Shown here in pieces: positions 1,442-18,439 of a stretch of 32,000 nt of DNA (position 1 is its first letter; the number at the start of each line of letters is the position of its first letter). Both the position numbers and the translations under genes were made by a program. The stretch is taken from contig NZ_CP042905.2 of assembly GCF_008000775.2 (NCBI RefSeq), forward strand, positions 4,290,001 to 4,322,000. Direction: 5' to 3'. A model generated the notes under the pieces. It was given only the letters and a program-made list of their open reading frames with translations. It searched no databases and had not been told where the DNA came from. This stretch comes from Promethearchaeum syntrophicum. GTDB taxonomy: Archaea; Asgardarchaeota; Lokiarchaeia; Sigyniarchaeales; Promethearchaeaceae.

Positions 1442-2227
1442 ATGAGAACTAATATTTCACAATTTGAGAGTGTTGGGTATGAGTATGCAAATAAGCTCAA
1501 AAAGACTCTCAAAATAAAAAATGTGGATGATTTTGTTAAATACCCTATTGAATTTATCCATGAAAAATCGGGTATTGAAATTAAGCGCCTAGAACAATTT
1601 TCTGATTTATTTGATCTATTTAGAGTACCAAATCTATCCGCTCGGGAAACCGAATTGTTGTATAACGCTAATATTAATTCAGTTACGGAACTTTCTCATC
1701 GCCAAGCTATAAGAATTTATTACAAATTAAAAAACATTGATGAGGAAACATATTTTATCATTTTGCAGTTACCTACGTTTGCCAAAATTGACGAATGGAT
1801 TTATTTTGCAAAAATGTTAACAAAACGAATAAAAATCGGGCTGAATATTCCGATTATCTTATTCCCAATGGTTTCAATAAGATCAGCCAGCGAATTAAAA
1901 AATTTTAAGATTTTCACAGCAAACGATTTTATTACTAAAGAACCAAATATCCCAAAAATATGGCGTATGGTTGATATGAAAAGAAGAGATTATAAAAAAC
2001 TCAAGCGAATGATAAATTTCGTAAAAATCCCTGGAGTGGATATATATTTTGCGAAAATATTCCAGGAGGCTAAAATAAAGGATGTAATTGAATTTAAAGA
2101 ATTAGAAGCGGATGCGATTTTAGAGATGGTAAAACTTATTCAAGATCAGGAAGTCTCTTGCATTGAAAAGATAGATATTGAATTCATCAAAGAAATTCAA
2201 AAAAAAATTATGGAGGAGGAATTTTAA
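1442..2227 (+). CDS. Hypothetical protein with repeated helix-hairpin-helix-like (DUF4332-like) modules
   Basis: The 261 aa contain three segments that fit the DUF4332/HhH pattern: FESVGYEYANKLKKTLKIKNVDDF, FRVPNLSARETELLYNANINSVTELS and VKIPGVDIYFAKIFQEAKIKDVIEF. The stop codon directly abuts the next ATG. Confidence 0.5.
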   Translation: MRTNISQFESVGYEYANKLKKTLKIKNVDDFVKYPIEFIHEKSGIEIKRLEQFSDLFDLFRVPNLSARETELLYNANINSVTELSHRQAIRIYYKLKNIDEETYFIILQLPTFAKIDEWIYFAKMLTKRIKIGLNIPIILFPMVSIRSASELKNFKIFTANDFITKEPNIPKIWRMVDMKRRDYKKLKRMINFVKIPGVDIYFAKIFQEAKIKDVIEFKELEADAILEMVKLIQDQEVSCIEKIDIEFIKEIQKKIMEEEF

Positions 2228-5200
2228 ATGGCATTAATCGATAATTTGATAATAATTCTCTATAGTGTTGTGGGATTAAGCACATTTTTATTTGGATTCT
2301 CATTAGTTTTTAAAAATCTGAGAAAAATTAATCGAATCGAAAGAGAGAAATTTGATTTAGGTGATTGGCTTGCATCGATCGGTTTTGGTGTAATGTTTAC
2401 TCTCGCAATTTTATTTGCATTAAATCTTTCAATAGAATCTTTTATTATAACAGAGGATCCACTCCCTTCAATTGCTGGATTTTTATTAGTAATTATGATC
2501 GGAATACTCCTTATCTATCCACTATGGGAAGTGATATTTTTAGGAAGGCCTACAGCAGATAGTGTTCACGATTTTCATAAATTTCTGGAATCGAGAATAT
2601 TAGATAGATTTAAGGGTAAAATGGCATATTTAGTTTCTTTCGGAATATTTATTGTGATTTACATAATTCCTGTTATTGTTTTCACTCTTCTATTAGATTA
2701 TTCTTTTATAGAAATCCTTTTTGTATGGTTCTTATTATTCCCTCTATTCTTTTTAAACTATTTTGCAGCAAATGGAATTGTATCTGCAATTTTACAGACA
2801 AGTTTTAGAAAAACCATCTCATCGGACATAATAGAAGCGAGTAATACTGGTAAAAATACGAAAAAGATGATCATAAATGTATTTGTTATGATGATAACTT
2901 GGCTTCCTTTTCTTCTCAATGCTTATAATATAGCTAATCCCATCATAAGGGCAATTAATGGGTATGAATTACTTGAAAAAGATCCAATTATGGGTATAAT
3001 TTCATTAGTTACAACCGTTCCTCTAGGAATTAAGGGTTTCTTCAACAAATTCTGGAATAAAAAATCAAAAACAAAGACAATTGATTTCTTATTCAGTGGT
3101 TATATTTTTATTGCAATTGGAATTAACATGTTGATAAATTTCTTCCAAATCAATGAAGGATTAGTTGTTTCAGTTTTTAGCCAAGTAGGATTTCTCTCTT
3201 CACTTAGTGCAATTTTCTCAGATTATACCCTACTTGTTCCAATTATTGTGATTCAAAGTTTAATTACACTTGTTTATGGATTGATTATCTTTTTCCAAAA
3301 AAATTCAGATTTTCACTCTGATATTCGATTAAGGGCAACTTCAATCGCATTTGGAATTAAAGATCTTGATGATTTAATCAAAAAGGATGATCCGGGGGCA
3401 AAGAAAAAGAGGAAAGAAAAAGAAAGAAAGTATGATTATTTAACTTTATATAAATCTCTTTTACTTCCACCAGTTTTCTCAAAATATGGAGTCGATCTTA
3501 ACGAACAGGTTAGATTAAAAGCGCGACAGTATCTTCTCCTAATAAGTATTAATAGTACAGAACACGCTCAAAAAATTGTTGATTTTGTTTTTGAGACTTC
3601 AATCGATCCTAAATCTTCAGTGAAATTCAAATATTCCAAATACTCAGTAAAGGAAGCTATTAATTTGTTGGGGGATATCGGAAAGAAATATCCTGAATTT
3701 GTGATGACTCGAATGATTGAAGCACTACCCGAATCCGATATTCAGATTCAGAGGTATATTTTAGATGCCTTAGGAGATATAGGTGAAAAAAAGGAGAATT
3801 TAATTGTAATATTAGATGAAATAGAACCATTATTGGAAAGCACACGCTATGAATTAAGAACGGCTGCATTTCAAGCAATTTCAGAGATGGTTATGGAAGG
3901 ATCCAATGATGACAAGGAATTTATTCAGATAGCACTGAAGAAAGTTTACGAAATTTTATCTGAATGTTATAAAAATCCAGATATAATCGATACTGCAATG
4001 GAATCTTTAGTGCAAATGAGTGCAAGAATTGCGAATGATTTAGATATATCTAAAATAATTCCGTTCATTCATTATTCTGAAGGCAAAGATAAAGACACCA
4101 ATGATTATATTATACAAAATGCGATTATTGTTCTGGGTTATATGGTATATTATAATATTGATACGTTTCCGTTAGAAGATATTAAAAATTACCTTAAGGA
4201 TAAAAGGAATTTTATTAGATATGTTGCATGTGATGCTATCGGCAATTTTATTTTAAAATGTCCTGATAACTTCAAAGAATCTCTATTAGTAAATTTGATG
4301 ATTATATCTCTTTATGATGATGACGATGATGTATGTGAGATGTGCACTGAGAGTATTACAGAATTTTTAGTTTTGAATAAAAATTATGAACCGATAATTG
4401 ATGGTCAGAAAATCTCTGTTTTAAATTATTATTTAAAGGCCCTATCGAGTTCAGAACGAAAAATTGCAGAAAAAGCTAGCGAAGCCTTAAAATCAATCAG
4501 TCCACTTTATGAGGAAAATATTTATCCCCAATTAGAAGAAATCATCAAAAAACAAGAAAACTTGGAATTAGTTAGGGATAGTTTACATGTAATTGCGCTA
4601 TCTGGTATTGAGGAGCACCTTAGTGTTGATTTAAACTTGATATATGGATTAACTGAACATACTGATGCAAGTGTGCGTTCAGAAGCAGTCTATACATTAG
4701 GGTTACTCTCAAAAAATAGGACTGATATAGATGAAAACTATATTATAAAACTAATCGATGATCCCGATCCCCAAGTAAGAAGTCAAACAATTTTTGCATT
4801 GGGAAAAATAGGTATAAATAAACCTGATAAAGTAATTCCGATATTGATTCAGGGATTCTTTGAAATCGATAGGCAATCAGATGATAAAATAAACGAAGTT
4901 GAATTATTTGCTGAAAGTTTAGGATTAATTGGAGCTGAGCACCCATCAAATGAGATTATTGTTTCTCTTCAAAGTGGATTGATGGGGGACTCGAACCCTT
5001 TCACTAAAGATGTTATGGCTCATGCATTAGGAGCAATTGGACACGGTATGATCCGCTCGGGAAATGCAACGCGGAGAATAGAAAATGAAGCATTTTACAA
5101 TAGTGTTAGTTGGTTACGAAGTCAAAGCAAAAAAGAATATACTATCGGAAATCTAGTTATTATTTTCATTGAAGCATTGCAATTAAAATCCATTCCAAAT

Positions 5201-5758
5201 TCAGTCATGGATGAAATATCAGATTCAGTTCAAGATCTTTTACCTGTCTTCTTATTTGTTGACGAAGATGAAAGAAAAAAGAACAGAATCTTAACAACCA
5301 TTAAAGAATTACTTGCTCAAGCATATTATAGTAATTACAATAATGAAATTCTCGAAAATATAGATAGAATAGATAGTTTAATAAGCTTTAAACGTAGTTT
5401 CGAGACAGACTTAACATCTCTTCAGGAACAGTTCATTTTCTTTAGTAAACAGTACACAAGTGACGGAAAACAGTTTTATGACCAAGGTAATGTCTTTTTG
5501 CAATTAGTTAAGAAAGAGGAACCTGAATTCTATGATTATGCTCTTCGTTCTTTTGAAGTCGCGATCGATTTAGCTCCATTTGAATTTTTTACACCTAATT
5601 GTTTATTGCAAATGGCAATTATTTTGGAGCATAAAGGGGAACATTTGGAAGCGAAGAAGAAATATGAAGAAGCTTTAGAAATTTTCAGCAGTTTAGATGA
5701 AATTGAAAAAATGAAAGAATGTGAACAAGCACTTACTTCTATTCAGCAACATCTTTAA
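2228..5758 (+). CDS. Large polytopic membrane protein with cytoplasmic HEAT/ARM repeats (PBS-lyase HEAT-like) and a C-terminal TPR-like end
   Basis: 1176 aa. The first ~370 aa hold about 9-10 hydrophobic helices, followed by a basic linker (KKKRKEKERK). HEAT-like repeats include DASVRSEAVYTLGLLS, DPDPQVRSQTIFALGKIG, IQRYILDALGDIG and RYELRTAAFQAISEM. The C-terminus is TPR-like (AKKKYEEALEIFSSL). Confidence 0.75.
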   Translation: MALIDNLIIILYSVVGLSTFLFGFSLVFKNLRKINRIEREKFDLGDWLASIGFGVMFTLAILFALNLSIESFIITEDPLPSIAGFLLVIMIGILLIYPLWEVIFLGRPTADSVHDFHKFLESRILDRFKGKMAYLVSFGIFIVIYIIPVIVFTLLLDYSFIEILFVWFLLFPLFFLNYFAANGIVSAILQTSFRKTISSDIIEASNTGKNTKKMIINVFVMMITWLPFLLNAYNIANPIIRAINGYELLEKDPIMGIISLVTTVPLGIKGFFNKFWNKKSKTKTIDFLFSGYIFIAIGINMLINFFQINEGLVVSVFSQVGFLSSLSAIFSDYTLLVPIIVIQSLITLVYGLIIFFQKNSDFHSDIRLRATSIAFGIKDLDDLIKKDDPGAKKKRKEKERKYDYLTLYKSLLLPPVFSKYGVDLNEQVRLKARQYLLLISINSTEHAQKIVDFVFETSIDPKSSVKFKYSKYSVKEAINLLGDIGKKYPEFVMTRMIEALPESDIQIQRYILDALGDIGEKKENLIVILDEIEPLLESTRYELRTAAFQAISEMVMEGSNDDKEFIQIALKKVYEILSECYKNPDIIDTAMESLVQMSARIANDLDISKIIPFIHYSEGKDKDTNDYIIQNAIIVLGYMVYYNIDTFPLEDIKNYLKDKRNFIRYVACDAIGNFILKCPDNFKESLLVNLMIISLYDDDDDVCEMCTESITEFLVLNKNYEPIIDGQKISVLNYYLKALSSSERKIAEKASEALKSISPLYEENIYPQLEEIIKKQENLELVRDSLHVIALSGIEEHLSVDLNLIYGLTEHTDASVRSEAVYTLGLLSKNRTDIDENYIIKLIDDPDPQVRSQTIFALGKIGINKPDKVIPILIQGFFEIDRQSDDKINEVELFAESLGLIGAEHPSNEIIVSLQSGLMGDSNPFTKDVMAHALGAIGHGMIRSGNATRRIENEAFYNSVSWLRSQSKKEYTIGNLVIIFIEALQLKSIPNSVMDEISDSVQDLLPVFLFVDEDERKKNRILTTIKELLAQAYYSNYNNEILENIDRIDSLISFKRSFETDLTSLQEQFIFFSKQYTSDGKQFYDQGNVFLQLVKKEEPEFYDYALRSFEVAIDLAPFEFFTPNCLLQMAIILEHKGEHLEAKKKYEEALEIFSSLDEIEKMKECEQALTSIQQHL

Positions 5759-7423: not shown

Positions 7424-8689
7424 TTGAACGATCAAGACCCGAAATTGCGGACAAAAATCAATTCTGAGCAAAATATATCAAATAAAGAAGAATTTCCTTC
7501 AGAATTAAGACAAGAAAAAGTGAACCATTTTTCCGCTTCTATAGATAATTCTAATCAAGAATTCTCAAGAAATTTTATTGTTCCTTTAAACGGTAAAGAT
7601 AATCAAATAAAAAATGTTCAAGATTTCTTTTCACAATATGGAGAAATCAAAAATCTATTACAATTTAATTTAGATAAAATAGAAAAGCACAATGAAAGAA
7701 ATGGTGAAAAATTGGAAATTTATGATAACTTAGGGAAAATATCAGGAAAAATTCTTATAAAAACACCGAGAAATCATGAAATTCAATTATTTCTTCAACA
7801 ATTCTCATCTACAAATTATTGTAAATTATATAAAATTAATATATATAGACTTCTTGAGAAAATTAATAGAAATATTATTTCTTTGAAAGAAGAATTGATT
7901 AGATTTTTTATATTAAAAGATTTTCCTGAACCTTTTATTATTTTATTTCCTCTGGATGAGCTAGAATATTTCTCTCAAGAAGAAATCGTTCTCTTGTATT
8001 CAATATTTAAAATCACAGATAATTTTGCACCGATTTCATTAGGGGGATTATTTTTATTCGTCTCTTCACTAAAGCAAAATTTGCCACATGAGTTTAACAA
8101 TTTCTTTGATTTAGAAGTTAATGTAAAAATACCAGATATACAGAGCAAAAAGCGCTTAATAGAATCAATTTTAAAGAATATTCCGAATAATAATGTTGAT
8201 ATCGATCATTTTTCATTACAAGTAAAGGATTGGAATGTAGCATCAATTAGAAAATTCATTATTTTTGCTTATAGATACTTTCAAATTAATCAAAAAGATG
8301 ATTTAACAAGTAAAATGAAGTTTAATACCAAATTTCTTAGCGATTTAATTGAAAATAATTCAATAAATTTCAGAAACGATATTTCTTTAGATAAAAAAAA
8401 CGCAATACAGATTAATAATACAATAAATTCTCAACCTAAATTATTAGATTCAGGTAAAAAATTAAACCAAAACTTAGAAAACCAATTATATCAAGAATCT
8501 GCTTCAAAAAATTATGAGGATTTATGCATAATATTAGATAAAATTCAAAAAGGGATTGTTCTTTTGCCATTTGAAAGGCAAACACTAGCAGATAATTCCT
8601 TTATTCTAAAAGAAGACCCACAAAAAGCCTTGCAAAAACTAAATAAAGCAAAATCTACCGTTGATAAGTTTAAAAAGATTATTTCTTAA
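7424..8689 (+). CDS. Hypothetical protein with a degenerate classical-AAA+-like core (Walker A lost)
   Basis: 421 aa. A TTG start is preceded by GGAGAAGGAG, and there is no internal Met for about 300 codons. ILIKTPRNHEIQLF sits where GPPGTGKT is expected. PFIILFPLDELEYF is Walker-B-like. KIPDIQSKKRLIESILKNIP...VDIDHFSLQVKDWNVASIRKFIIFA resembles the AAA lid. Confidence 0.6.
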   Translation: MNDQDPKLRTKINSEQNISNKEEFPSELRQEKVNHFSASIDNSNQEFSRNFIVPLNGKDNQIKNVQDFFSQYGEIKNLLQFNLDKIEKHNERNGEKLEIYDNLGKISGKILIKTPRNHEIQLFLQQFSSTNYCKLYKINIYRLLEKINRNIISLKEELIRFFILKDFPEPFIILFPLDELEYFSQEEIVLLYSIFKITDNFAPISLGGLFLFVSSLKQNLPHEFNNFFDLEVNVKIPDIQSKKRLIESILKNIPNNNVDIDHFSLQVKDWNVASIRKFIIFAYRYFQINQKDDLTSKMKFNTKFLSDLIENNSINFRNDISLDKKNAIQINNTINSQPKLLDSGKKLNQNLENQLYQESASKNYEDLCIILDKIQKGIVLLPFERQTLADNSFILKEDPQKALQKLNKAKSTVDKFKKIIS

Positions 8690-8714: not shown

Positions 8715-11700
8715 GTGAATACTATGACCGAAATGAAAGGATTGGCAGAAAACATTGAAAAAACTAAATCAATGGAGTTATCCCCAATTCTAGATGAGAA
8801 AAAAGAGGTCATAAAAGATTTTAAAAATAAGATCAAATTAGAAAAAATTATTTTAGAAGACTTCATCTCATTCGATTATAATGAAGTAATATTTCATCCT
8901 GAATTTACAATCATTACTGGTCCTAATGGTGTTGGCAAATCTTCAATATATCATGCTCTTAAATTTGTACTAGGTTCTAATGATTATGATGGACGATATA
9001 ATAAATGGTCTAATTTTATTAGAACAGGACAAAAATATGCAATTGTAACTCTTTACTTGCAATTCTCTGGAAAAAAATATTGTCTTAAAAGAACCGTTTT
9101 TAAGGATAAAGCCCCAAAATTTTCTTTTCAAGGTCCAGATGAAAAAGAATTTCACGATGTTTCAGCAAAAAAGATTCAAGAATTTGTAGATAAAATTGGT
9201 ATTGATCCTGACCATGTGTTCTCATTTATGTCTCAAGGTAAAATTGGATCTCTTAAAAATTTTAAAGATGAAGCCTTGTGCACATTTGTGGAAAAAGGAT
9301 TAGGACTTAATATTCTTAGAGAAAATATATTAAGTCAAAAAGAACGAATAATTTATTTAAAAAAGGAATTTTCTGTGTTAATTTCACAACGAGACAGTAT
9401 GAAATATCAACTAGTTGAATTAGAACCTAAATTAAAACGTTTAGAGAAAAAAAGATCTTTGCTAAGTAAATTAGAAGGGTTAGATAATGAGCTATTATGG
9501 GCACAAAAAGAAGATATTATAAAACAAATTGATGTATATCGCGATCAGATTCATTTTAAAGAAAATTCAATTAAAGATCTTGAATTAAATATCAGTACTC
9601 TTCAAGAAGAAGAAAACTCCATTGAAGAGAATTTGAAACAAGAAAAAGACGAATACAAGATTACAATTGATATTTTTGCACAAAAAAAAGCGCATCTTGA
9701 AATTTTAAAAAAAGAAATTAATAAATGGACCTCTGAAAAGAATCAAATTGCTGATAAAATCGAGAAAATATCTAAAGATATAGATAAATTACAGTTAGAT
9801 ATTAATAAACAAGGTTTTGAGCTTAAATCTTATCAAAAGAGCATGGATGATTTGAAAACCTTAACTGGAGAAGCAAAACTTTTATTAAAATCATATGAAG
9901 ATGAGGAACGCTCTTTAAATAAAAAATTCATTAAATATCGGGAAATATTGTTTGAATTTGATTCAAAAACACAAATAGTTTCAAATTTAGAAGACAATTT
10001 GAAAGAAATAGAAGAAAGTCATAACAAAAAGGAATCAGAAATCAATGAAAAAGCCAAGGAAATTCAAAAAATCGACCATGAATTGAAGGATTTCAAATGG
10101 TTTATGGAAAATCCAAAAAAAGATTTACAAATTAAAATGAAAGCTTTAGTAGAAAAATATCAAAAATCAATAAATATCTTCAATGACGATTTAGTACAAT
10201 TACAAATTCAATATAAAACATTAACAAGTGAGATAGAACGCGTTAAACAATCTGTTCATGATAAAAGCATGCCTAAACCAAAATCCATAATATCCATGAT
10301 GGATGAAATTAAACAGAGGAACATGCAAAGTATTGGTCCGTTGATTGATTATATAACTTTTGATCCTTTATATCAAATGGCGGTTGAATCAATCTTTGGT
10401 TCAAGAGTCTTATATAGTTTCATTGCTAAAAATCATGAAGAATTTGCCCTACTTAAAAATATGGCTCAAAGATATAATGCAAGATGTAATCTATATTTAG
10501 AAAAACAAAAAAACCTAACTCCTTTACCTTCATTGAATGATTCTCAAGAAATGGGAGTATTTGGGTATTTAGCAGAAATAATAAAACCTACAATCCCGGA
10601 ACCTGCAATTCAAAAAGTTATTCATTCCGTAGCAAGTATAACACTTGTTGTTAAGGATCATATTGCTGGAACTAACTACACTCAAAAATTTAAATCCAGA
10701 AATTGGATTGTAACCTTAGATGGAGAACAATTAAGACCGAAAAAATTTGTTTTAGAAGCGCGTCCTTATATTTCAAATAATAAACAAAAAATTACAAGTG
10801 TCTCTCAGGCAAAAATAATATTAAATGAATTAAACGAAAAATCTGAAAGAAATCGTCATAATTATAATAAGCGAAGTTCAGATCTACAAAACCTTAAAGA
10901 AAAACATAAGAAAGTATTGAAAGATTTAGCACAAATTGATGTCCTATTAGTAAAATATAAACAAAAGGAAATAACTACTAAGGTTAAAAACGCTCTAATA
11001 AATGAGAGAGAGAAAAATTATACTAAAATTCAAGAAAAAAAGAAAAAGATTGAAGTTATTAAAAAAGAGATCGAAATTTTGAAAGAAAAATTACCCGATG
11101 ATTCAATATTAAATCATGATCGACTAACTCAACTACCAAATTTAATAGTTACTCAAAAAAATAAGATAACAGAATATGAATCTAAAAAAGACATTAATAT
11201 TCAGCAAATAAATGATATAAAAATTAAGGAAAATCTTCTTTCAAATGAAATAAATGCAAAAACAAAAGAAAAACAAGAGATAATTTCGGATTTAACTTCT
11301 CAAGATAAACATTATTATGATCTCATTCAAGAAAATATCAAATTAACAGGTCAAATTAAAAACATTAAAAATGAAATTGAAGAGAGCAACACAAAAATCA
11401 CTTCCTTAGAATTGGAAGAAAAAAAGATTTCTGAAGAAAAAAATCAACTGTTAATTCGGAAGGCCACGTTGAAAAATTCGATCGATGATATTAAATCCTA
11501 CATTGAAGAGAAAGAGAAGAAAATTGAAAGAATTAGCAATATTTTAAAGGAGATCAAAGAAAAAGTTTACCCAAAGCGTCCAATCATCGAAATTCAAAAT
11601 GATATCGAAGAAATAAATAAAATCTTGAGATCTTATTTCGATGTAGATGAAAATATCATATTAGAAAAACAACGAATTGAGGATTCAATAAAAAAAATAT

Positions 11701-12266
11701 TAGAAAAGCAAGAAACATCAGATAAAGAGATAAAAGCAGCAAAAGAAGCAGAATTAAAAATTGAACAAAACTATCTTAACAAATTCGAAAAATCTGTAGA
11801 TATTTTAGAAGATCTCGTAAATAAAAAATTAAAATTTACCCAAACTGATTTTAATGTGAATTTAAATTTAGAAGGGGAAATTGAAGAATTTAAATTAACA
11901 ATTAAAGCCGTTTCAACAAAAAATCAAAAAAATGTTCGTCCTTTTACAGCTTTGAGTGGTGGGGAACAATCTATGGTTGGAATTAGTCTAATGTTATCAT
12001 TGCACTATTTTAATCCTTCTCCTTTCAATATCTACGATGAAATTGAAATGTTTTTGGACAACCTAAACGCAGAAATCATCGCAAAATTAATCTTCGAAAT
12101 TACAACAAGTGGAATTCAATGCATTTTAATAATGCCAGATTCTTCCATTTCAATATTATATTATGCAAATAAAGTCATTGGGATTAGTAAAAATGGAACC
12201 AATGGTTCATCAACTGTGCATTATGCCAAGGCGCGAAAAAATTCTAATTTCCAAACTCTTAATTAG
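8715..12266 (+). CDS. smc: SMC-family chromosome ATPase (hinge-containing) with divergent head motifs resembling SMC5/6
   Basis: 1183 aa.
- Walker A: FTIITGPNGVGKSS
- Q-loop: FMSQGKIGSL
- Long K/E/I-rich coiled coils
- SMC hinge: IGPLIDYITFDPLYQMAVESIFG ... IVTLDGEQLRP
- Signature motif: LSGGEQSMVGISLMLSL
- Walker B / D-loop: FNIYDEIEMFLD
There is no CxxC zinc hook. The start is GTG 8715 or ATG 8724. Confidence 0.85.
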   Translation: MNTMTEMKGLAENIEKTKSMELSPILDEKKEVIKDFKNKIKLEKIILEDFISFDYNEVIFHPEFTIITGPNGVGKSSIYHALKFVLGSNDYDGRYNKWSNFIRTGQKYAIVTLYLQFSGKKYCLKRTVFKDKAPKFSFQGPDEKEFHDVSAKKIQEFVDKIGIDPDHVFSFMSQGKIGSLKNFKDEALCTFVEKGLGLNILRENILSQKERIIYLKKEFSVLISQRDSMKYQLVELEPKLKRLEKKRSLLSKLEGLDNELLWAQKEDIIKQIDVYRDQIHFKENSIKDLELNISTLQEEENSIEENLKQEKDEYKITIDIFAQKKAHLEILKKEINKWTSEKNQIADKIEKISKDIDKLQLDINKQGFELKSYQKSMDDLKTLTGEAKLLLKSYEDEERSLNKKFIKYREILFEFDSKTQIVSNLEDNLKEIEESHNKKESEINEKAKEIQKIDHELKDFKWFMENPKKDLQIKMKALVEKYQKSINIFNDDLVQLQIQYKTLTSEIERVKQSVHDKSMPKPKSIISMMDEIKQRNMQSIGPLIDYITFDPLYQMAVESIFGSRVLYSFIAKNHEEFALLKNMAQRYNARCNLYLEKQKNLTPLPSLNDSQEMGVFGYLAEIIKPTIPEPAIQKVIHSVASITLVVKDHIAGTNYTQKFKSRNWIVTLDGEQLRPKKFVLEARPYISNNKQKITSVSQAKIILNELNEKSERNRHNYNKRSSDLQNLKEKHKKVLKDLAQIDVLLVKYKQKEITTKVKNALINEREKNYTKIQEKKKKIEVIKKEIEILKEKLPDDSILNHDRLTQLPNLIVTQKNKITEYESKKDINIQQINDIKIKENLLSNEINAKTKEKQEIISDLTSQDKHYYDLIQENIKLTGQIKNIKNEIEESNTKITSLELEEKKISEEKNQLLIRKATLKNSIDDIKSYIEEKEKKIERISNILKEIKEKVYPKRPIIEIQNDIEEINKILRSYFDVDENIILEKQRIEDSIKKILEKQETSDKEIKAAKEAELKIEQNYLNKFEKSVDILEDLVNKKLKFTQTDFNVNLNLEGEIEEFKLTIKAVSTKNQKNVRPFTALSGGEQSMVGISLMLSLHYFNPSPFNIYDEIEMFLDNLNAEIIAKLIFEITTSGIQCILIMPDSSISILYYANKVIGISKNGTNGSSTVHYAKARKNSNFQTLN

Positions 12267-12270
12267 GAGG
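12265..12270 (+). promoter_or_regulatory. Shine-Dalgarno-like AGGAGG, 6 nt upstream of the kleisin ATG
   Basis: AGGAGG overlaps the smc TAG stop (12264-12266), and the ATG is at 12277. This is consistent with translation of an internal operon gene. Confidence 0.5.
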
Positions 12271-12276
12271 ATTTAA

Positions 12277-12957
12277 ATGTCCAGACTTATTTCACTGCTA
12301 GAACGAATAAGTTTTTTGAAAAATCAAGTTCTAATGGGAAAAAAAACATTACTTGATGAAGATTTGGAATCTTTATTTATTGAATTTAAGGATTTAATTT
12401 CAGAATCTGAATTAGAGACCAGTATTCAGATTATGGATAATGGGACTATAATTCTCGAACAGAAGCTCGAAGAATTAAGGAATTTCATATCTAATATCTC
12501 TCAAAAAGATCAAATTCTTGAATATCTTAGAAATTCTTCCTCAGATGAGTCCTTTTCTCAAATCTTGAATAAAACGTGGCAATCCCCTTTATTGTTACCT
12601 AATTTTTCACTATCATTTTTAACGAAAAGCTTTGAACGGCTTGTGCTAAACAAAAAATCCACTAATTTAGAAATGTTTTTTAAAGAAAAACCAATTCTTG
12701 GAGTCCCTGACATAAAAGAACTCCCTGAAATTGATAAACCTTATAAAATAAAAATGCTTGGGTATCTAAATTTGATTCGACCATTATTACCTGCTACTTT
12801 AGAGGAACTTATTGATAGAAACCATTCTATTGATGTATATTATGAAAATTTCTCTTATATCCTCCATTTACTCCAACTCGGATTTTTATCGTTCACGAAA
12901 AAAACTCAACATTTTGATATTACAAATAAAAAAATAGAAGGCAAATTTGATGAATGA
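12277..12957 (+). CDS. scpA: ScpA-like kleisin (SMC partner)
   Basis: 226 aa, located immediately after smc. The C-terminal segment FSYILHLLQLGFLSFTKKTQHFDIT fits the kleisin C-terminal winged-helix pattern (FLAxLELxKxxxxxxxQxxxFxxI). The N-terminus is only weakly ScpA-like. Confidence 0.55.
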   Translation: MSRLISLLERISFLKNQVLMGKKTLLDEDLESLFIEFKDLISESELETSIQIMDNGTIILEQKLEELRNFISNISQKDQILEYLRNSSSDESFSQILNKTWQSPLLLPNFSLSFLTKSFERLVLNKKSTNLEMFFKEKPILGVPDIKELPEIDKPYKIKMLGYLNLIRPLLPATLEELIDRNHSIDVYYENFSYILHLLQLGFLSFTKKTQHFDITNKKIEGKFDE

Positions 12958-13507
12958 ATATACAATTTTACTGTATTTATTGACTCGAACAAAACAAGGA
13001 AATTCTAATGATAAATTTGAAATTATTGGGGCTTCAGAAGAAGAATTATGTGATAGTTTACATTTTACAGGGAAATTTACGAAAATCCAATTGCATGAAC
13101 TTATGGATCAATTTTCAAAATCTATTTCAATCTTTAATCTCCAACTAAAACAAAATCCGTTTAATTTTCGATGGTATTTAACCCAATCATCTGAAATTGA
13201 AGAGTTTTTCAGTTCAAATCCATTTAGTGGAAAACCAAGAATAGCCGCAACACTTTGTACGGTTCTTTCTTTATGTATGACAAATAATGGAAAAATAGAT
13301 ATCAATTCGGTTCGGAAAATAAGAAATAAGAAGGATATCAGAAAAGATTTGCAAGAATTGGAGAAATTAAACTTCATAAATATGGAAAAGAAAAGCAATC
13401 TAATATCTATTAATCCTTATTTGGGGTATTTTATGGATATCGAGGGTTTTTTGAATATACTTGAAAATGAAATAAGAAAAAAGAATATAGAAAATGTTGA
13501 TGAATAA
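12950..13507 (+). CDS. scpB: ScpB-like kite protein (tandem winged helix)
   Basis: The start overlaps the kleisin stop (gATGAATGA). The first winged helix is YTILLYLL...ASEEELCDSL. The second, AATLCTVLSLCMTNNGKIDINSVRKIRNKKDIRKDLQELEKLNFI, matches the ScpB pattern (S.AALE.LA.I.Y.QPIT...I..IRG......L..L....L). Confidence 0.6.
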   Translation: MNEYTILLYLLTRTKQGNSNDKFEIIGASEEELCDSLHFTGKFTKIQLHELMDQFSKSISIFNLQLKQNPFNFRWYLTQSSEIEEFFSSNPFSGKPRIAATLCTVLSLCMTNNGKIDINSVRKIRNKKDIRKDLQELEKLNFINMEKKSNLISINPYLGYFMDIEGFLNILENEIRKKNIENVDE

Positions 13508-13585: not shown

Positions 13586-13933
13586 ATGGGAATGTTTTCT
13601 CGCAAAAAAAAAAAAGAATATACTCATTTTACAAAAAGGTTAACAAATTCAATATATATCAAACAGATAGCAATACATTCAAATAGTGATTTTACAACTT
13701 TAAAGCATAATTTATTAGACGGACATATTATGGTATGCGATTTAACCCCCCTCGTTAGAATTGCAAAAGGATTACATGGTTCAAAAGAAGGAAATAAACA
13801 TATATTACATAATCAACTCCAGCAAATTAAAAAATATTGCCTCCAGCATGGAGGAAATGTTACTAAATTAAAGGAAAGTATATTATTGATTACTCCAAAT
13901 ATAAATTTCAAACTGCAGAATTTTATTAAATAA
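13586..13933 (+). CDS. sepF: SepF-like cell-division protein (archaeal type)
   Basis: 115 aa. The N-terminal MGMFSRKKKK resembles the membrane-targeting sequence. The core IYIKQIAIHSNSDFTTLKHNLLDGHIMVCDLTPL...GGNVTKLKESILLITPNINF aligns with the haloarchaeal SepF layout (..V.I..I....D...IK..+..G.++I.D+T.....GDIV.....+++TP). Confidence 0.6.
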   Translation: MGMFSRKKKKEYTHFTKRLTNSIYIKQIAIHSNSDFTTLKHNLLDGHIMVCDLTPLVRIAKGLHGSKEGNKHILHNQLQQIKKYCLQHGGNVTKLKESILLITPNINFKLQNFIK

Positions 13934-15940: not shown

Positions 15941-18439
15941 TTATAGAATATTTTTAAAATCTTCAATTATTTTCTTACTATTTTTTTTATTGCCCGAATT
16001 ATTTAATAAGTTTCTAATTTTTTCTTCAATTTCATTTGATATTTTTTTCCCACCCCGAACGGAAGGTTCAAAATTTTGAATGTAATCTACCATATCATCA
16101 GGGAGATCATAGATTTTACCCAAAATAATGTCACAAATATCGATAATATTTTTCATTTCCGAAGTGTTAAACCTGCGGTGTTCCTTATCAAAACATTGCA
16201 TGAGTGATTTCATTAAAAAGGAAGAAAATTCTTTAAGAAGGTCAAAAAATGTCTTTAATTTATCTACAAGATCTTGAGAAAGGGGAAAAGCTTTCATTAT
16301 ATCAGAATTCATGTGCCTTCCATCACTATAAATTCTAAACCATACGTAATACAGTGAACTGTTAATTAGAATTAAGATAAAATATTTCAACCCTTCTATA
16401 TTTCTTGATATTTCTACCAGTGCAATCTGCGTTCCATAATAAGGTGGTTTTTCCCAAGCATTATACCAATAATTTCCTGATATTCTAACGGATATTAAAT
16501 CTTCAACCTTTTTTCCTTCTTTCTCAAATTGCATCAATTTATTTCTATACTCATCAATATTTCTAATAATTAAGAATCTGTTTAAAATATCGCCTAAAAT
16601 TAGTAATTTTTCATTAGAATTTAGAGTATAATGTTCTGAGAGCAACTCCAAAAATTCTCTTGCCCTTTTTTCACCTATTTTGGGAAGTCTGTGCTTTTTA
16701 TCAAAAGAAACTCCTATATTTTTTCCTAATAGAAAATTATTAGCCAGTACATATTTAATATTTCGAAGATCTGGCATTTTTCTAAACATATTTGTTGTCA
16801 GAATGTCTGAAAATTGATTTTTATTTAATTTTATGGAATTCTTGTTTATACATTGAATAATTGAAACAGATTGTGTCATTTTGGTAAAAAATCGGCATTT
16901 ATCTCTGTCAAAAGATGCAATTTTACTTATTTCATAGGAATTTACGATTTTTTGGCGCGTTTTAGAAAGATCTTTACTAAAACATATAGCATAACTAGTT
17001 AAAAATGCAATTATACCTTTGTTTCGATTGAGATCAATGGCCCGTTCAATGAAAACTGACGAAATTTCATTCAAGAATGAATAAAATGGATCGATTTCTT
17101 TTTTCTCAGAATTTGAAAGTAAATTTCCATACGGAGGGTTTCCTAAAATAATATCAAATCCAAAATTATTCGAGTTAATTGGAAAAACATCTGGAAATTC
17201 AACATTCCAATGAAAGGGTTTAATTTTGGTATTCTTTTTTATTTCTTTGGTATCTTTTTCACTCCAATTAATAGAACCTAATAAAGAATTTCCTGTGAGA
17301 ATATTTAATCTCAATAACCTAGGATTCAAAAATCTTGAAGATGAAAAATCCCATGAATCAATATAATTTAGAAAAAGTCTAATTTTCGCAATAATTACAG
17401 CGCGTGGATTAATATCTACTCCATATATAGCTGACGAAAATAAAAATTTCTTTAGAATGGCAATGGAATCTTTAAATTTTTCAAAGGAGTTTAAATCTAT
17501 TATCTCATCAGAAACTGTTATTAACAATACTCCCTTAATTTGGTAATTTCTTGATGCCGTCCATATATATTTGTATAATTTAATTAATATTTTTGTTATA
17601 CTAGCTAGAAAATGCCCAGATCCAACAGCTGGGTCCAAAATTTTAAAATTATTAATCTTTACAAAAAAATCTTGAATTTTATTAAGTTTTAACTTAAATT
17701 CATATTGATCTAGTTCTGATTTAAAGAAATTCTCACAATTTATCCAAAAAGGAACTTTTAAATTATCTGAAAACAATTTGGCATTTAGACTAGATTCAGC
17801 AAGGAAATCACAGATATTATCCGGAGTATAATATGCCCCCGTTGATTTTTTAGTGTCATCTGATAAAATTTTCTCAAACAGAGCTCCAATGATAAAATCA
17901 TTAATTGGACCCCCCACAATTTCCTGCAAGATGAACATATTAAATAATGGAAGTGAGTTAATTATTGATTCAGGAATTTTTTTGGATATTTTGATTTTTT
18001 CAAGTTGTGTACTATCAATATCTTGAAAAAATGCTTCATTTGGTAAGGACTTGTGAATAAACCCATCCCAAAGAAAACCGTGATTATCTCTCAGGAAATA
18101 ATCTCCTATAATAACGAGTTCTTCTTGGTTACTATTCCTTGATATGACGGGTAATTTTTTAGAATTCGAAGGAAAAATACTATTAAAAAATTTAGTTAAG
18201 AATTCAGAATAAAATTGGTGATTTAGGGATGACTTTTTTCGATTAAAGTGATTTAAAAAATATTCAGAATCTTTATTAAAACACAGCTTTCGTTGCAAAT
18301 ACCAGAGAGCGGTCATTAAAAGCACAAATCTATTTATTTTTTCTGGATTTATATCTGACTTGCTGATTCTTTGCAAGTATTCGCAAGATTTTTTAAAAAT
18401 ATTAAAAAATGAATCAATTTTTTTATTCTGTAGGCTCAA
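15941..18439 (-). CDS. N6-adenine DNA methyltransferase, gamma class (Eco57I/TaqI-like) with a C-terminal target-recognition domain; no nuclease domain seen
   Basis: The motifs are GAYYTPDNICDFL, ILDPAVGSGHFL (motif I), IYGVDINPRAVIIAKIRL and DIILGNPPYG (motif IV). The C-terminal TRD-like segment LINSSLYYVWFR and the tail KIYDLPDDMVDYIQ are typical of this family. Confidence 0.9.
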   Translation of the reverse strand: MSLQNKKIDSFFNIFKKSCEYLQRISKSDINPEKINRFVLLMTALWYLQRKLCFNKDSEYFLNHFNRKKSSLNHQFYSEFLTKFFNSIFPSNSKKLPVISRNSNQEELVIIGDYFLRDNHGFLWDGFIHKSLPNEAFFQDIDSTQLEKIKISKKIPESIINSLPLFNMFILQEIVGGPINDFIIGALFEKILSDDTKKSTGAYYTPDNICDFLAESSLNAKLFSDNLKVPFWINCENFFKSELDQYEFKLKLNKIQDFFVKINNFKILDPAVGSGHFLASITKILIKLYKYIWTASRNYQIKGVLLITVSDEIIDLNSFEKFKDSIAILKKFLFSSAIYGVDINPRAVIIAKIRLFLNYIDSWDFSSSRFLNPRLLRLNILTGNSLLGSINWSEKDTKEIKKNTKIKPFHWNVEFPDVFPINSNNFGFDIILGNPPYGNLLSNSEKKEIDPFYSFLNEISSVFIERAIDLNRNKGIIAFLTSYAICFSKDLSKTRQKIVNSYEISKIASFDRDKCRFFTKMTQSVSIIQCINKNSIKLNKNQFSDILTTNMFRKMPDLRNIKYVLANNFLLGKNIGVSFDKKHRLPKIGEKRAREFLELLSEHYTLNSNEKLLILGDILNRFLIIRNIDEYRNKLMQFEKEGKKVEDLISVRISGNYWYNAWEKPPYYGTQIALVEISRNIEGLKYFILILINSSLYYVWFRIYSDGRHMNSDIMKAFPLSQDLVDKLKTFFDLLKEFSSFLMKSLMQCFDKEHRRFNTSEMKNIIDICDIILGKIYDLPDDMVDYIQNFEPSVRGGKKISNEIEEKIRNLLNNSGNKKNSKKIIEDFKNIL

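Follow-up and report, generated by a model that had tools for sequence, protein, structure and literature searches.

Archaeal SMC (structural maintenance of chromosomes) proteins have been divided into a 'canonical' and an 'SMC5/6-related' group, the latter found mostly in TACK archaea and also in Asgard archaea (Yoshinaga & Inagaki 2021, PMC8665677). Two complexes were described by van Hooff et al. (bioRxiv 10.1101/2024.01.07.573240), one condensin/cohesin-related and the other SMC5/6-related, the latter consisting of an SMC with a kleisin related to Nse4 and a kite related to Nse1/3. Here we analyse an SMC-kleisin-kite operon in a stretch of 32,000 nucleotides (nt) from Promethearchaeum syntrophicum MK-D1, the first cultured Asgard archaeon (contig NZ_CP042905.2, positions 4,290,001 to 4,322,000, hereafter the window). 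An earlier note, made from the sequence alone, had read this operon as a compact SMC5/6-like complex of a probable Asgard archaeon. The guess at its origin was correct, and we conclude with high confidence that the operon encodes the SMC5/6-related complex of MK-D1, the second of two SMC-kleisin-kite complexes in this organism. The SMC5/6-like reading has already been published for the same genome and is here correctly rediscovered, so that the residual novelty of the locus is a conserved dead AAA+ gene directly upstream of the SMC gene.

The archaeal SMC5/6-related operons described in both studies represent the same system, with the same gene order and the same coexistence with a canonical operon. 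As published these operons comprise three genes, whereas here a fourth, encoding the dead AAA+ protein, was found on the 5' side in 15 loci. Eukaryotic Smc5/6 resembles the MK-D1 complex in the x-Pro at the H-loop of the SMC head, the short N-head loop, an LSGGE[QR]S-type signature and the combination of a kleisin with a tandem winged-helix kite, and the best structural matches of the MK-D1 kleisin are found there. Unlike the single SMC gene encoded here, however, the eukaryotic complex is built on a heterodimer; the single MK-D1 kite has no RING domain and is nearer to ScpB, and counterparts of the Nse2 SUMO ligase and of Nse5/6 were not found in the operon. To our knowledge, the AAA+-like partner gene has no counterpart in eukaryotic Smc5/6.

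Smc-ScpAB shares with the MK-D1 operon the smc-kleisin-kite order, a hinge-dimerised SMC of about 1180 amino acids (aa) and a kite whose fold is the closest match. It differs in that the MK-D1 SMC fails the TIGR02169 and TIGR02168 cutoffs and has neither a TH/SH/SL H-loop nor an N-head loop of nine residues, the ScpA Pfam model does not match the kleisin, and a separate canonical operon is reported for the genome. MukBEF, Wadjet JetABCD and Lamassu likewise combine an SMC-type ATPase with a kleisin and a tandem winged-helix kite, and MukE and JetB are weak structural matches of the MK-D1 kite (E about 1e-2), but hinge and head similarity is far lower, and the MK-D1 locus has no nuclease subunit and is chromosomally conserved.

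Gene content and identity of the operon

The three forward-strand open reading frames (ORFs) of the earlier note were borne out at 8715-12266 (1183 aa, GTG start), 12277-12957 (226 aa) and 12947-13507 (186 aa, TTG start), and the sequence also contains the AGGAGG, the overlap in ATGAATGA and each of the four motif strings that the note quotes. Both unusual starts were revised. The SMC is likely to begin at ATG 8724 (1180 aa) rather than at GTG 8715, because the gene call on an identical contig (DRR199588_30 from MK-D1 run DRR199588, 100.000% identical to window positions 2277-22957 over 20,681 nt) and the 1180-aa orthologues agree on this start. The kite most likely begins at ATG 12950, giving 185 aa, a start likewise favoured by that gene call and by the orthologues. 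The smc gene stops with TAG at 12264-12266, and at 12950-12957 the ATGAATGA string holds the kite ATG overlapping the kleisin TGA, with 8 nt shared between the two genes. These junctions are as described in the earlier note, which had taken the three genes for one coupled unit; this unit, however, starts before 8715, with a fourth gene on its 5' side that ends 34 nt upstream of SMC ATG 8724. Taken as a whole, the operon is very probably transcribed as a tightly coupled four-gene unit encoding a dead AAA+ protein, the SMC, the kleisin and the kite, with the following features:

7424-8689, forward strand: AAA+-like pseudo-ATPase of the classic CDC48/Vps4 clade (421 aa), first gene of the four-gene unit
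8724-12266, forward strand: SMC ATPase, very probably the SMC5/6-related archaeal paralogue (Pfam SMC_N 2.3e-14, SMC_hinge 4.6e-5)
8919-8945, forward strand: Walker A motif GPNGVGKSS of the SMC (residues 69-77), invariant throughout its clade
9012-9059, forward strand: N-head block NFIRTGQKYAIVTLYL (residues 100-115), with a 3-residue loop between G105 and A109
10332-10661, forward strand: hinge (dimerisation) domain (residues 540-649; PF06470, 24.2 bits against a cutoff of 22.5)
11952-12002, forward strand: ABC signature motif LSGGEQSMVGISLMLSL (residues 1080-1096), located in the sequence
12024-12068, forward strand: Walker B motif and D-loop FNIYDEIEMFLDNLN (residues 1104-1118), with D1108 and E1109 intact
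12132-12137, forward strand: Met1140-Pro1141 at the canonical H-loop position (TH/SH/SL in canonical SMC, TP in SMC5/6)
12265-12270, forward strand: Shine-Dalgarno-like AGGAGG, overlapping the smc TAG and 6 nt 5' of the kleisin ATG at 12277
12277-12957, forward strand: kleisin DSAG12_00498 (226 aa), modelled by AlphaFold2 (AF2) with helices at the N terminus, disorder in the middle and a winged helix at the C terminus
12950-13507, forward strand: tandem winged-helix kite (185 aa; AF2 pLDDT 85.5, pTM 0.73), its ATG overlapping the kleisin stop

In three genera the operon is embedded in conserved chromosomal synteny with housekeeping genes (proteasome, TFIIB and RtcB).

In P. syntrophicum, van Hooff et al. 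(supplementary text and Table S3) assign NZ_CP042905.1_495/_496/_497 (orientation 1;1;1) as SMC5/6-related SMC, kleisin and kite, and _810/_809/_808 as a condensin/cohesin-related SMC-kleisin-ScpB-like set. Their maximum-likelihood (ML) tree (LG+C60+G) places MK-D1 gene _495 in the SMC5/6-related clade. In our profile search the window kleisin had a full-length, 100%-identical match, 'hypothetical protein DSAG12_00498 [Promethearchaeum syntrophicum]' (P0119), whereas neither the SMC nor the kite of MK-D1 had a 100% match in the protein database. DSAG12_00498 probably corresponds to Prodigal gene _496, because numbering, gene order and orientation fit and the sole alternative operon lies about 300 genes off.

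The SMC ATPase and its affinity with SMC5/6

The SMC is predicted to run from an N-terminal head half through one coiled-coil arm to the hinge and back through a second arm to the C-terminal half of the head. It carries the complete split ABC ATPase head of an SMC sensu stricto, with GPNGVGKSS (residues 69-77), the Q-loop residue Q174, LSGGE (1080-1084) and D1108-E1109; the Lokiarchaeial subclade shows no variation at the signature residues S1081, G1082 and G1083, and the string following the D-loop, IQCILIMPDSSISIL, occupies residues 1134-1148. The earlier note was right in recognising a true SMC hinge, for which the SMC_hinge model scored above its cutoff, and in excluding a Rad50 zinc hook, as no CxxC occurs in the SMC. 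The NCBIfam equivalogs for canonical SMC scored far below their cutoffs (TIGR02169, 181.9 bits against 729.4; TIGR02168, 172.1 against 567.35), and so did those for Rad50 (at most 61 bits against at least 700), ASRP (60 against 300) and the arcadin-4 model Rkd4 (24.5 against 860).

An exhaustive profile search covering 1.84 billion representatives recovered an Asgard-wide clade whose scores grade from 1684 to 378 bits; canonical archaeal SMCs come next, with 250 bits at most. Named members of this clade come from Promethearchaeota, Helarchaeota, Hodarchaeota, Baldrarchaeia, Odinarchaeota and Thorarchaeota. We aligned 142 full-length SMCs with the heads of human SMC5, human SMC6, yeast Smc5 and yeast Smc6 taken from PDB alignments, and two characters of the head set the clade apart. 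At the H-loop position, x-Pro was found in 37 of 37 clade members and in all three SMC5/6 sequences counted (human SMC5, human SMC6 and yeast Smc5), and in 0 of 99 canonical SMCs, which have TH, SH or SL. The N-head loop has three residues in 34 of the 37 clade members and in 3/3 SMC5/6 sequences, compared with nine residues in 72 of the 99 canonical SMCs. The replacement of the H-loop His by Pro and the short N-head loop are discrete characters that link the Asgard clade with genuine SMC5/6 sequences. The SMC6 strings given in the earlier note match those of human SMC6 (PDB 9lwi_A), which reads LSGGERSFSTVCFILSL...FRCLDEFDVYMD...RQFILLTPQSMSSL.

Two hidden Markov models (HMMs) of the head, one built from clade heads and one from canonical heads, were compared. 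SMC5/6 heads scored higher on the clade HMM in five of six comparisons (net +59 bits), whereas three eukaryotic SMC2/3-like proteins favoured the canonical HMM in all six (+22 to +66 bits each). In a rough neighbour-joining (NJ) distance tree of 266 head columns, which included two eukaryotic SMC5/6 taxa but lacked an outgroup, the immediate sister group of human SMC5/6 was made up exclusively of clade members in 95 of 100 bootstraps. The failure of the canonical model, the two head characters, the HMM preference and the NJ sister placement together uphold the earlier proposal of an SMC5/6-like rather than a canonical SMC.

Some relatives of the window SMC differ from it in ways of their own. 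A degenerate signature (SEGQK/SEGQR or SKGQQ instead of SGGE/Q) was seen in clade members P0197 (Hodarchaeota-labelled), P0198, P0202, P0206 and P0204 (Baldrarchaeia); to judge from these motifs, the heads may engage differently on ATP in the lineage nearest to eukaryotes. Another divergent SMC group (P0236, P0242 and P0279; about 188-217 bits) has an SSGEY/SSGQQ signature, I-P or V-P in place of the H-loop motif and a short N-head loop, and favours the clade HMM over the canonical HMM. The Promethearchaeia metagenome-assembled genome (MAG) DRO88 encodes two copies of the operon-type SMC and kite, P0006/P0063 (DRO88_06945/06935) and P0017/P0066 (DRO88_02065/02055), with SMCs 68% and 39% identical to that of the window; either the bin is mixed or the entire operon was duplicated in this lineage. 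In a Thorarchaeota-labelled MAG (L008, 1147-1998 and 2178-4613), the orthologous SMC is split into ORFs of 283 and 811 aa, which points to a frameshift, to a pseudogene or to faulty assembly.

Kleisin and kite

The AF2 model of the kleisin (pLDDT 74) has helices at residues 2-19, 31-40 and 43-86, is disordered from 126 to 151 and forms a winged helix at 156-215, which is the kleisin-superfamily architecture of an N-terminal helical domain, a flexible linker and a C-terminal winged helix. Its two best Foldseek matches, 7tve_G (E 0.023, probability 0.75) and 7qcd_F (E 0.13), both belong to yeast Smc5/6 entries, while the C-terminal winged helices of ScpA/Scc1 matched at E about 1.2 (TMt 0.5-0.67). 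These two chains are probably Nse4; they are unlikely to be Nse1 or Nse3, because the kite model matched neither of them. By sequence, the kleisin had no Pfam or PDB match to kleisin families, and no Pfam kleisin family, Nse4_C included, was matched among 44 homologues. The earlier description as an Nse4-like kleisin thus stands as regards the kleisin architecture, while its Nse4 part is weakly supported by best structural matches in Smc5/6 entries. In the published tree, gene _496 is labelled Nse4-related (van Hooff et al.).

The kite shows two winged-helix domains in its AF2 model and a gene overlapping that of the kleisin by 8 nt, as expected of this family. Its best Foldseek matches are to ScpB (E 5e-4 to 1e-3, TM up to 0.56), followed by MAGE-G1 (8.5e-3), MukE and JetB (about 1e-2) and Nse1/Nse3 in 7dg2 (2.5e-2 to 9e-2). 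The Pfam ScpB model was matched by 6 of 40 kite-family members (best 2.2e-6), and the MAGE and SMC_Nse1 models by none of the 40. A RING domain would find no room in 185 aa. The Nse1/3-like label of the earlier note was therefore not borne out by our tests, the kite being slightly closer to ScpB by Foldseek and Pfam and lacking a RING; the published label, based on HMMs and trees, differs from these tests in naming it Nse1-3-related (van Hooff et al.). Profiles of both families gave only chance-level matches to PDB (Spc24, MvhD), so that the kleisin and kite assignments rest on fold.

Alternative explanations

The strongest competitor, which we consider unlikely, is that the SMC is a divergent Asgard-specific paralogue with no specific kinship to SMC5/6, its head features being ancestral or convergent and its grouping the result of long-branch attraction. 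Several observations weigh against an SMC5/6 assignment and towards this view. The exact bipartition of the clade plus SMC5/6 was recovered in only 30 of 100 NJ bootstraps, and the smallest clade round eukaryotic SMC2/3-like sequences included clade members in about 43% of replicates, which indicates that long branches attract each other in the NJ tree. Crude as it is and open to this artefact, the tree agrees with two independent published ML analyses that group archaeal homologues, including those of Asgard archaea, with SMC5/6 (PMC8665677; 10.1101/2024.01.07.573240), although monophyly of all eukaryotic SMCs was not rejected in the latter (p-AU 0.317). The bit score of PDB chains against the profile was rejected as a classifier because it did not separate SMC5/6 from SMC1-4, which scored about equally (SMC4 140, Smc6 129, SMC3 128, SMC2 126 and Smc5 109 bits).

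The short N-head loop may be ancestral rather than shared derived, possibly Rad50-like, but the H-loop proline, with its complete separation of the clade and SMC5/6 from canonical SMCs, and the opposite HMM log-odds of SMC5/6 and SMC2/3-like heads argue against a paralogue without SMC5/6 kinship. The partner proteins point both ways: the kite is genuine but ScpB-like, slightly nearer to ScpB than to Nse1/Nse3, whereas the best structural matches of the kleisin fall in Smc5/6 entries, a link to Nse4 that would be in the right direction but weak. Two further qualifications concern the published assignment, as the mapping of tag 00498 to gene _496 is inferred from numbering and the second, canonical operon is taken as reported by van Hooff et al. 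alone.

A role in defence or plasmid restriction, as an SMC-based module of the Wadjet, Lamassu or Mks kind that acts together with the DNA methyltransferase nearby, is in our estimation improbable. In its favour, the SMC is matched by PADLOC LmuB models with up to 73.5 bits and weakly by JetC models (best 20.5), and two kite-family members weakly match DUF4194, which we take to be the JetB family. Eukaryotic SMC5/6 restricts extrachromosomal DNA, and seven loci have an N6-adenine methyltransferase a few kb or less from the operon, in varied positions and orientations. However, the LmuB and JetC matches are confined to generic head and coiled-coil regions and score far below those to SMC, the hinge is a true SMC hinge, and JetD/Toprim, LmuA or another nuclease gene is absent from the operon, which therefore lacks the pairing of a JetC or LmuB ATPase with a nuclease partner. 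Moreover, the operon keeps its housekeeping synteny (proteasome, TFIIB, RtcB) in three genera and is found conserved in the different Asgard lineages, whereas defence islands are typically patchy in their distribution.

Scarcely credible is the alternative offered by the earlier note itself, a housekeeping Smc-ScpAB condensin with drifted motifs, since the archaeal smc-scpA-scpB gene order, the top NCBIfam match of the SMC to TIGR02169 and the best matches of the kite to ScpB are set against a TIGR02169 score of 182 bits with a cutoff of 729, a clade set off by a score gap (378 to 250 bits) and discrete head characters, and a separate condensin/cohesin-related operon (_810 to _808) reported in the genome. 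With this published second operon (10.1101/2024.01.07.573240), the SMC is not the sole, canonically nested SMC of its genome, the outcome on which the earlier note would have given up its reading.

A dead AAA+ gene upstream of the SMC gene

A profile built from six homologues of the 7424-8689 product matched VCP/CDC48 and CdvC-Vps4 in PDB (E 2.5e-6 to 8e-6) from the sensor-1 to the lid region, in keeping with an AAA+ core plus lid. The MK-D1 protein matched no Pfam family, and PADLOC IetA at E 1.5e-5. At the aligned P-loop position the lysine of the Walker A GK[ST] is gone in 13 of 13 homologues (e.g. GPPGTDFE, APYGSDII, TPRNHEIQ), from which we infer that the protein is dead as an ATPase. The most conserved part of the family is a C-terminal helical module, QLYQ[ED]AAS-NY-EL...KAK.

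The gene was located directly 5' of the clade SMC, on the same strand and often with an overlap of a few nt, in all 15 loci inspected, which are labelled as Loki-, Thor- and Hodarchaeota assemblies or are unlabelled metagenome contigs. They comprise L. ossiferum, Harpocratesius, four metagenomic relatives, a Thorarchaeota-labelled MAG, a 517-kb contig, five contigs from a search for the AAA+-like gene that was unbiased with regard to the SMC, a second Thorarchaeota-labelled locus and a Hodarchaeota-labelled locus. The gene is not mentioned in the main text of van Hooff et al.; their supplements and Yoshinaga & Inagaki were not searched for it.

Binding of ATP in the usual manner would not be possible for the AAA+-like protein; its most likely function is that of a structural or regulatory partner of the complex. 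We tentatively suggest, as possible rather than probable, that it is a fourth dedicated and previously undescribed subunit, translationally coupled to the SMC, which could serve as a loader or ATPase regulator functionally analogous to Nse5/6 and, with the N6-adenine methyltransferase, might connect the complex to the discrimination of DNA substrates. If it is a genuine subunit, it would provide a concrete new component for those experimenting with MK-D1 or recombinant proteins, and would raise the question of whether the pre-eukaryotic ancestor of SMC5/6 had a dedicated regulator that subsequently disappeared or gave way to Nse5/6.

Proposed mechanism and role

To the observed gene content, motifs, folds, clade membership and synteny, a mechanism can be added by analogy with the solved structures of Smc-ScpAB and Smc5/6, from which the stoichiometry, DNA transactions and cellular role of the MK-D1 complex were deduced. 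The single SMC gene implies a homodimer, in which two copies of the SMC would dimerise via the hinge. The ABC-type heads, with Walker A, Q-loop, signature and Walker B intact, are predicted to engage on ATP, and one kleisin could bridge them asymmetrically, its N-terminal helices binding one SMC at the neck and its C-terminal winged helix the other SMC at the cap. A kite dimer would sit on the middle of the kleisin, and the resulting ring could entrap DNA or translocate on it. The complex probably has a specialised role, for example in DNA repair, junction processing or the control of extrachromosomal DNA, and not in bulk segregation, because a canonical condensin-like operon is encoded elsewhere in the genome.

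The term holocomplex used in the earlier note holds insofar as an SMC, a kleisin and a kite are present, but overstates the case, as the operon encodes a single SMC, a RING is missing from the kite, and no Nse2 or Nse5/6 counterpart was found. In the operon, none of the additional parts of a eukaryotic Smc5/6 holocomplex was identified, be it a second SMC, an SP-RING protein or an Nse5/6-like gene. With a compact SMC5/6-like operon and a condensin-like operon in one cultured Asgard archaeon, the locus bears on how eukaryotes acquired separate SMC complexes.

Neighbouring genes

A HEAT-repeat protein of 1176 aa (2228-5758, forward strand) matches Pfam Cnd1, the condensin CAP-D2 family (39.5 bits against a cutoff of 26.4), and narrowly misses the stromalin SCD domain (25.3 against 27.5 bits). 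Its gene lies 3 kb 5' of the SMC operon on the same strand, with the same order in L. ossiferum and Harpocratesius. It was rejected as a hawk or Nse5/6-like partner, as its PDB matches were only to designed alphaRep proteins, a GH77 gene intervenes and the synteny is lost in more distant loci; the link is probably one of generic HEAT similarity and local synteny. A DUF4332/TfoX_C-like (helix-hairpin-helix) protein of 261 aa (1442-2227, forward strand) abuts the start of the HEAT gene (2227/2228), and the two are also adjacent in L. ossiferum (L001 1097-1879 and 1881-5462).

An N6-adenine DNA methyltransferase of the Eco57I/MmeI type (Type IIG/PglX-like) is encoded at 15941-18439 on the reverse strand of the window and is the one that recurs near the operon in seven loci, the others being L001 17102-19981, L003 15521-18640, L006 17336-end, L004 4347-6347, L005 3232-5214 and L010 245-2281. 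It lies 3' of the operon on the opposite strand in close relatives and immediately 5' on the same strand in distant ones, and the window and L005 enzymes share 24% identity over 613 aa (E 1e-15). Judging from this recurrence in the sequences, a functional link between methyltransferase and operon is possible.

Just 3' of the kite, a 115-aa ORF (13586-13933, forward strand) has a sub-threshold match to SepF (E 0.0011, 19.6 against 27 bits), and ORFs of similar size (105-106 aa) occupy the same position in L. ossiferum and Harpocratesius.

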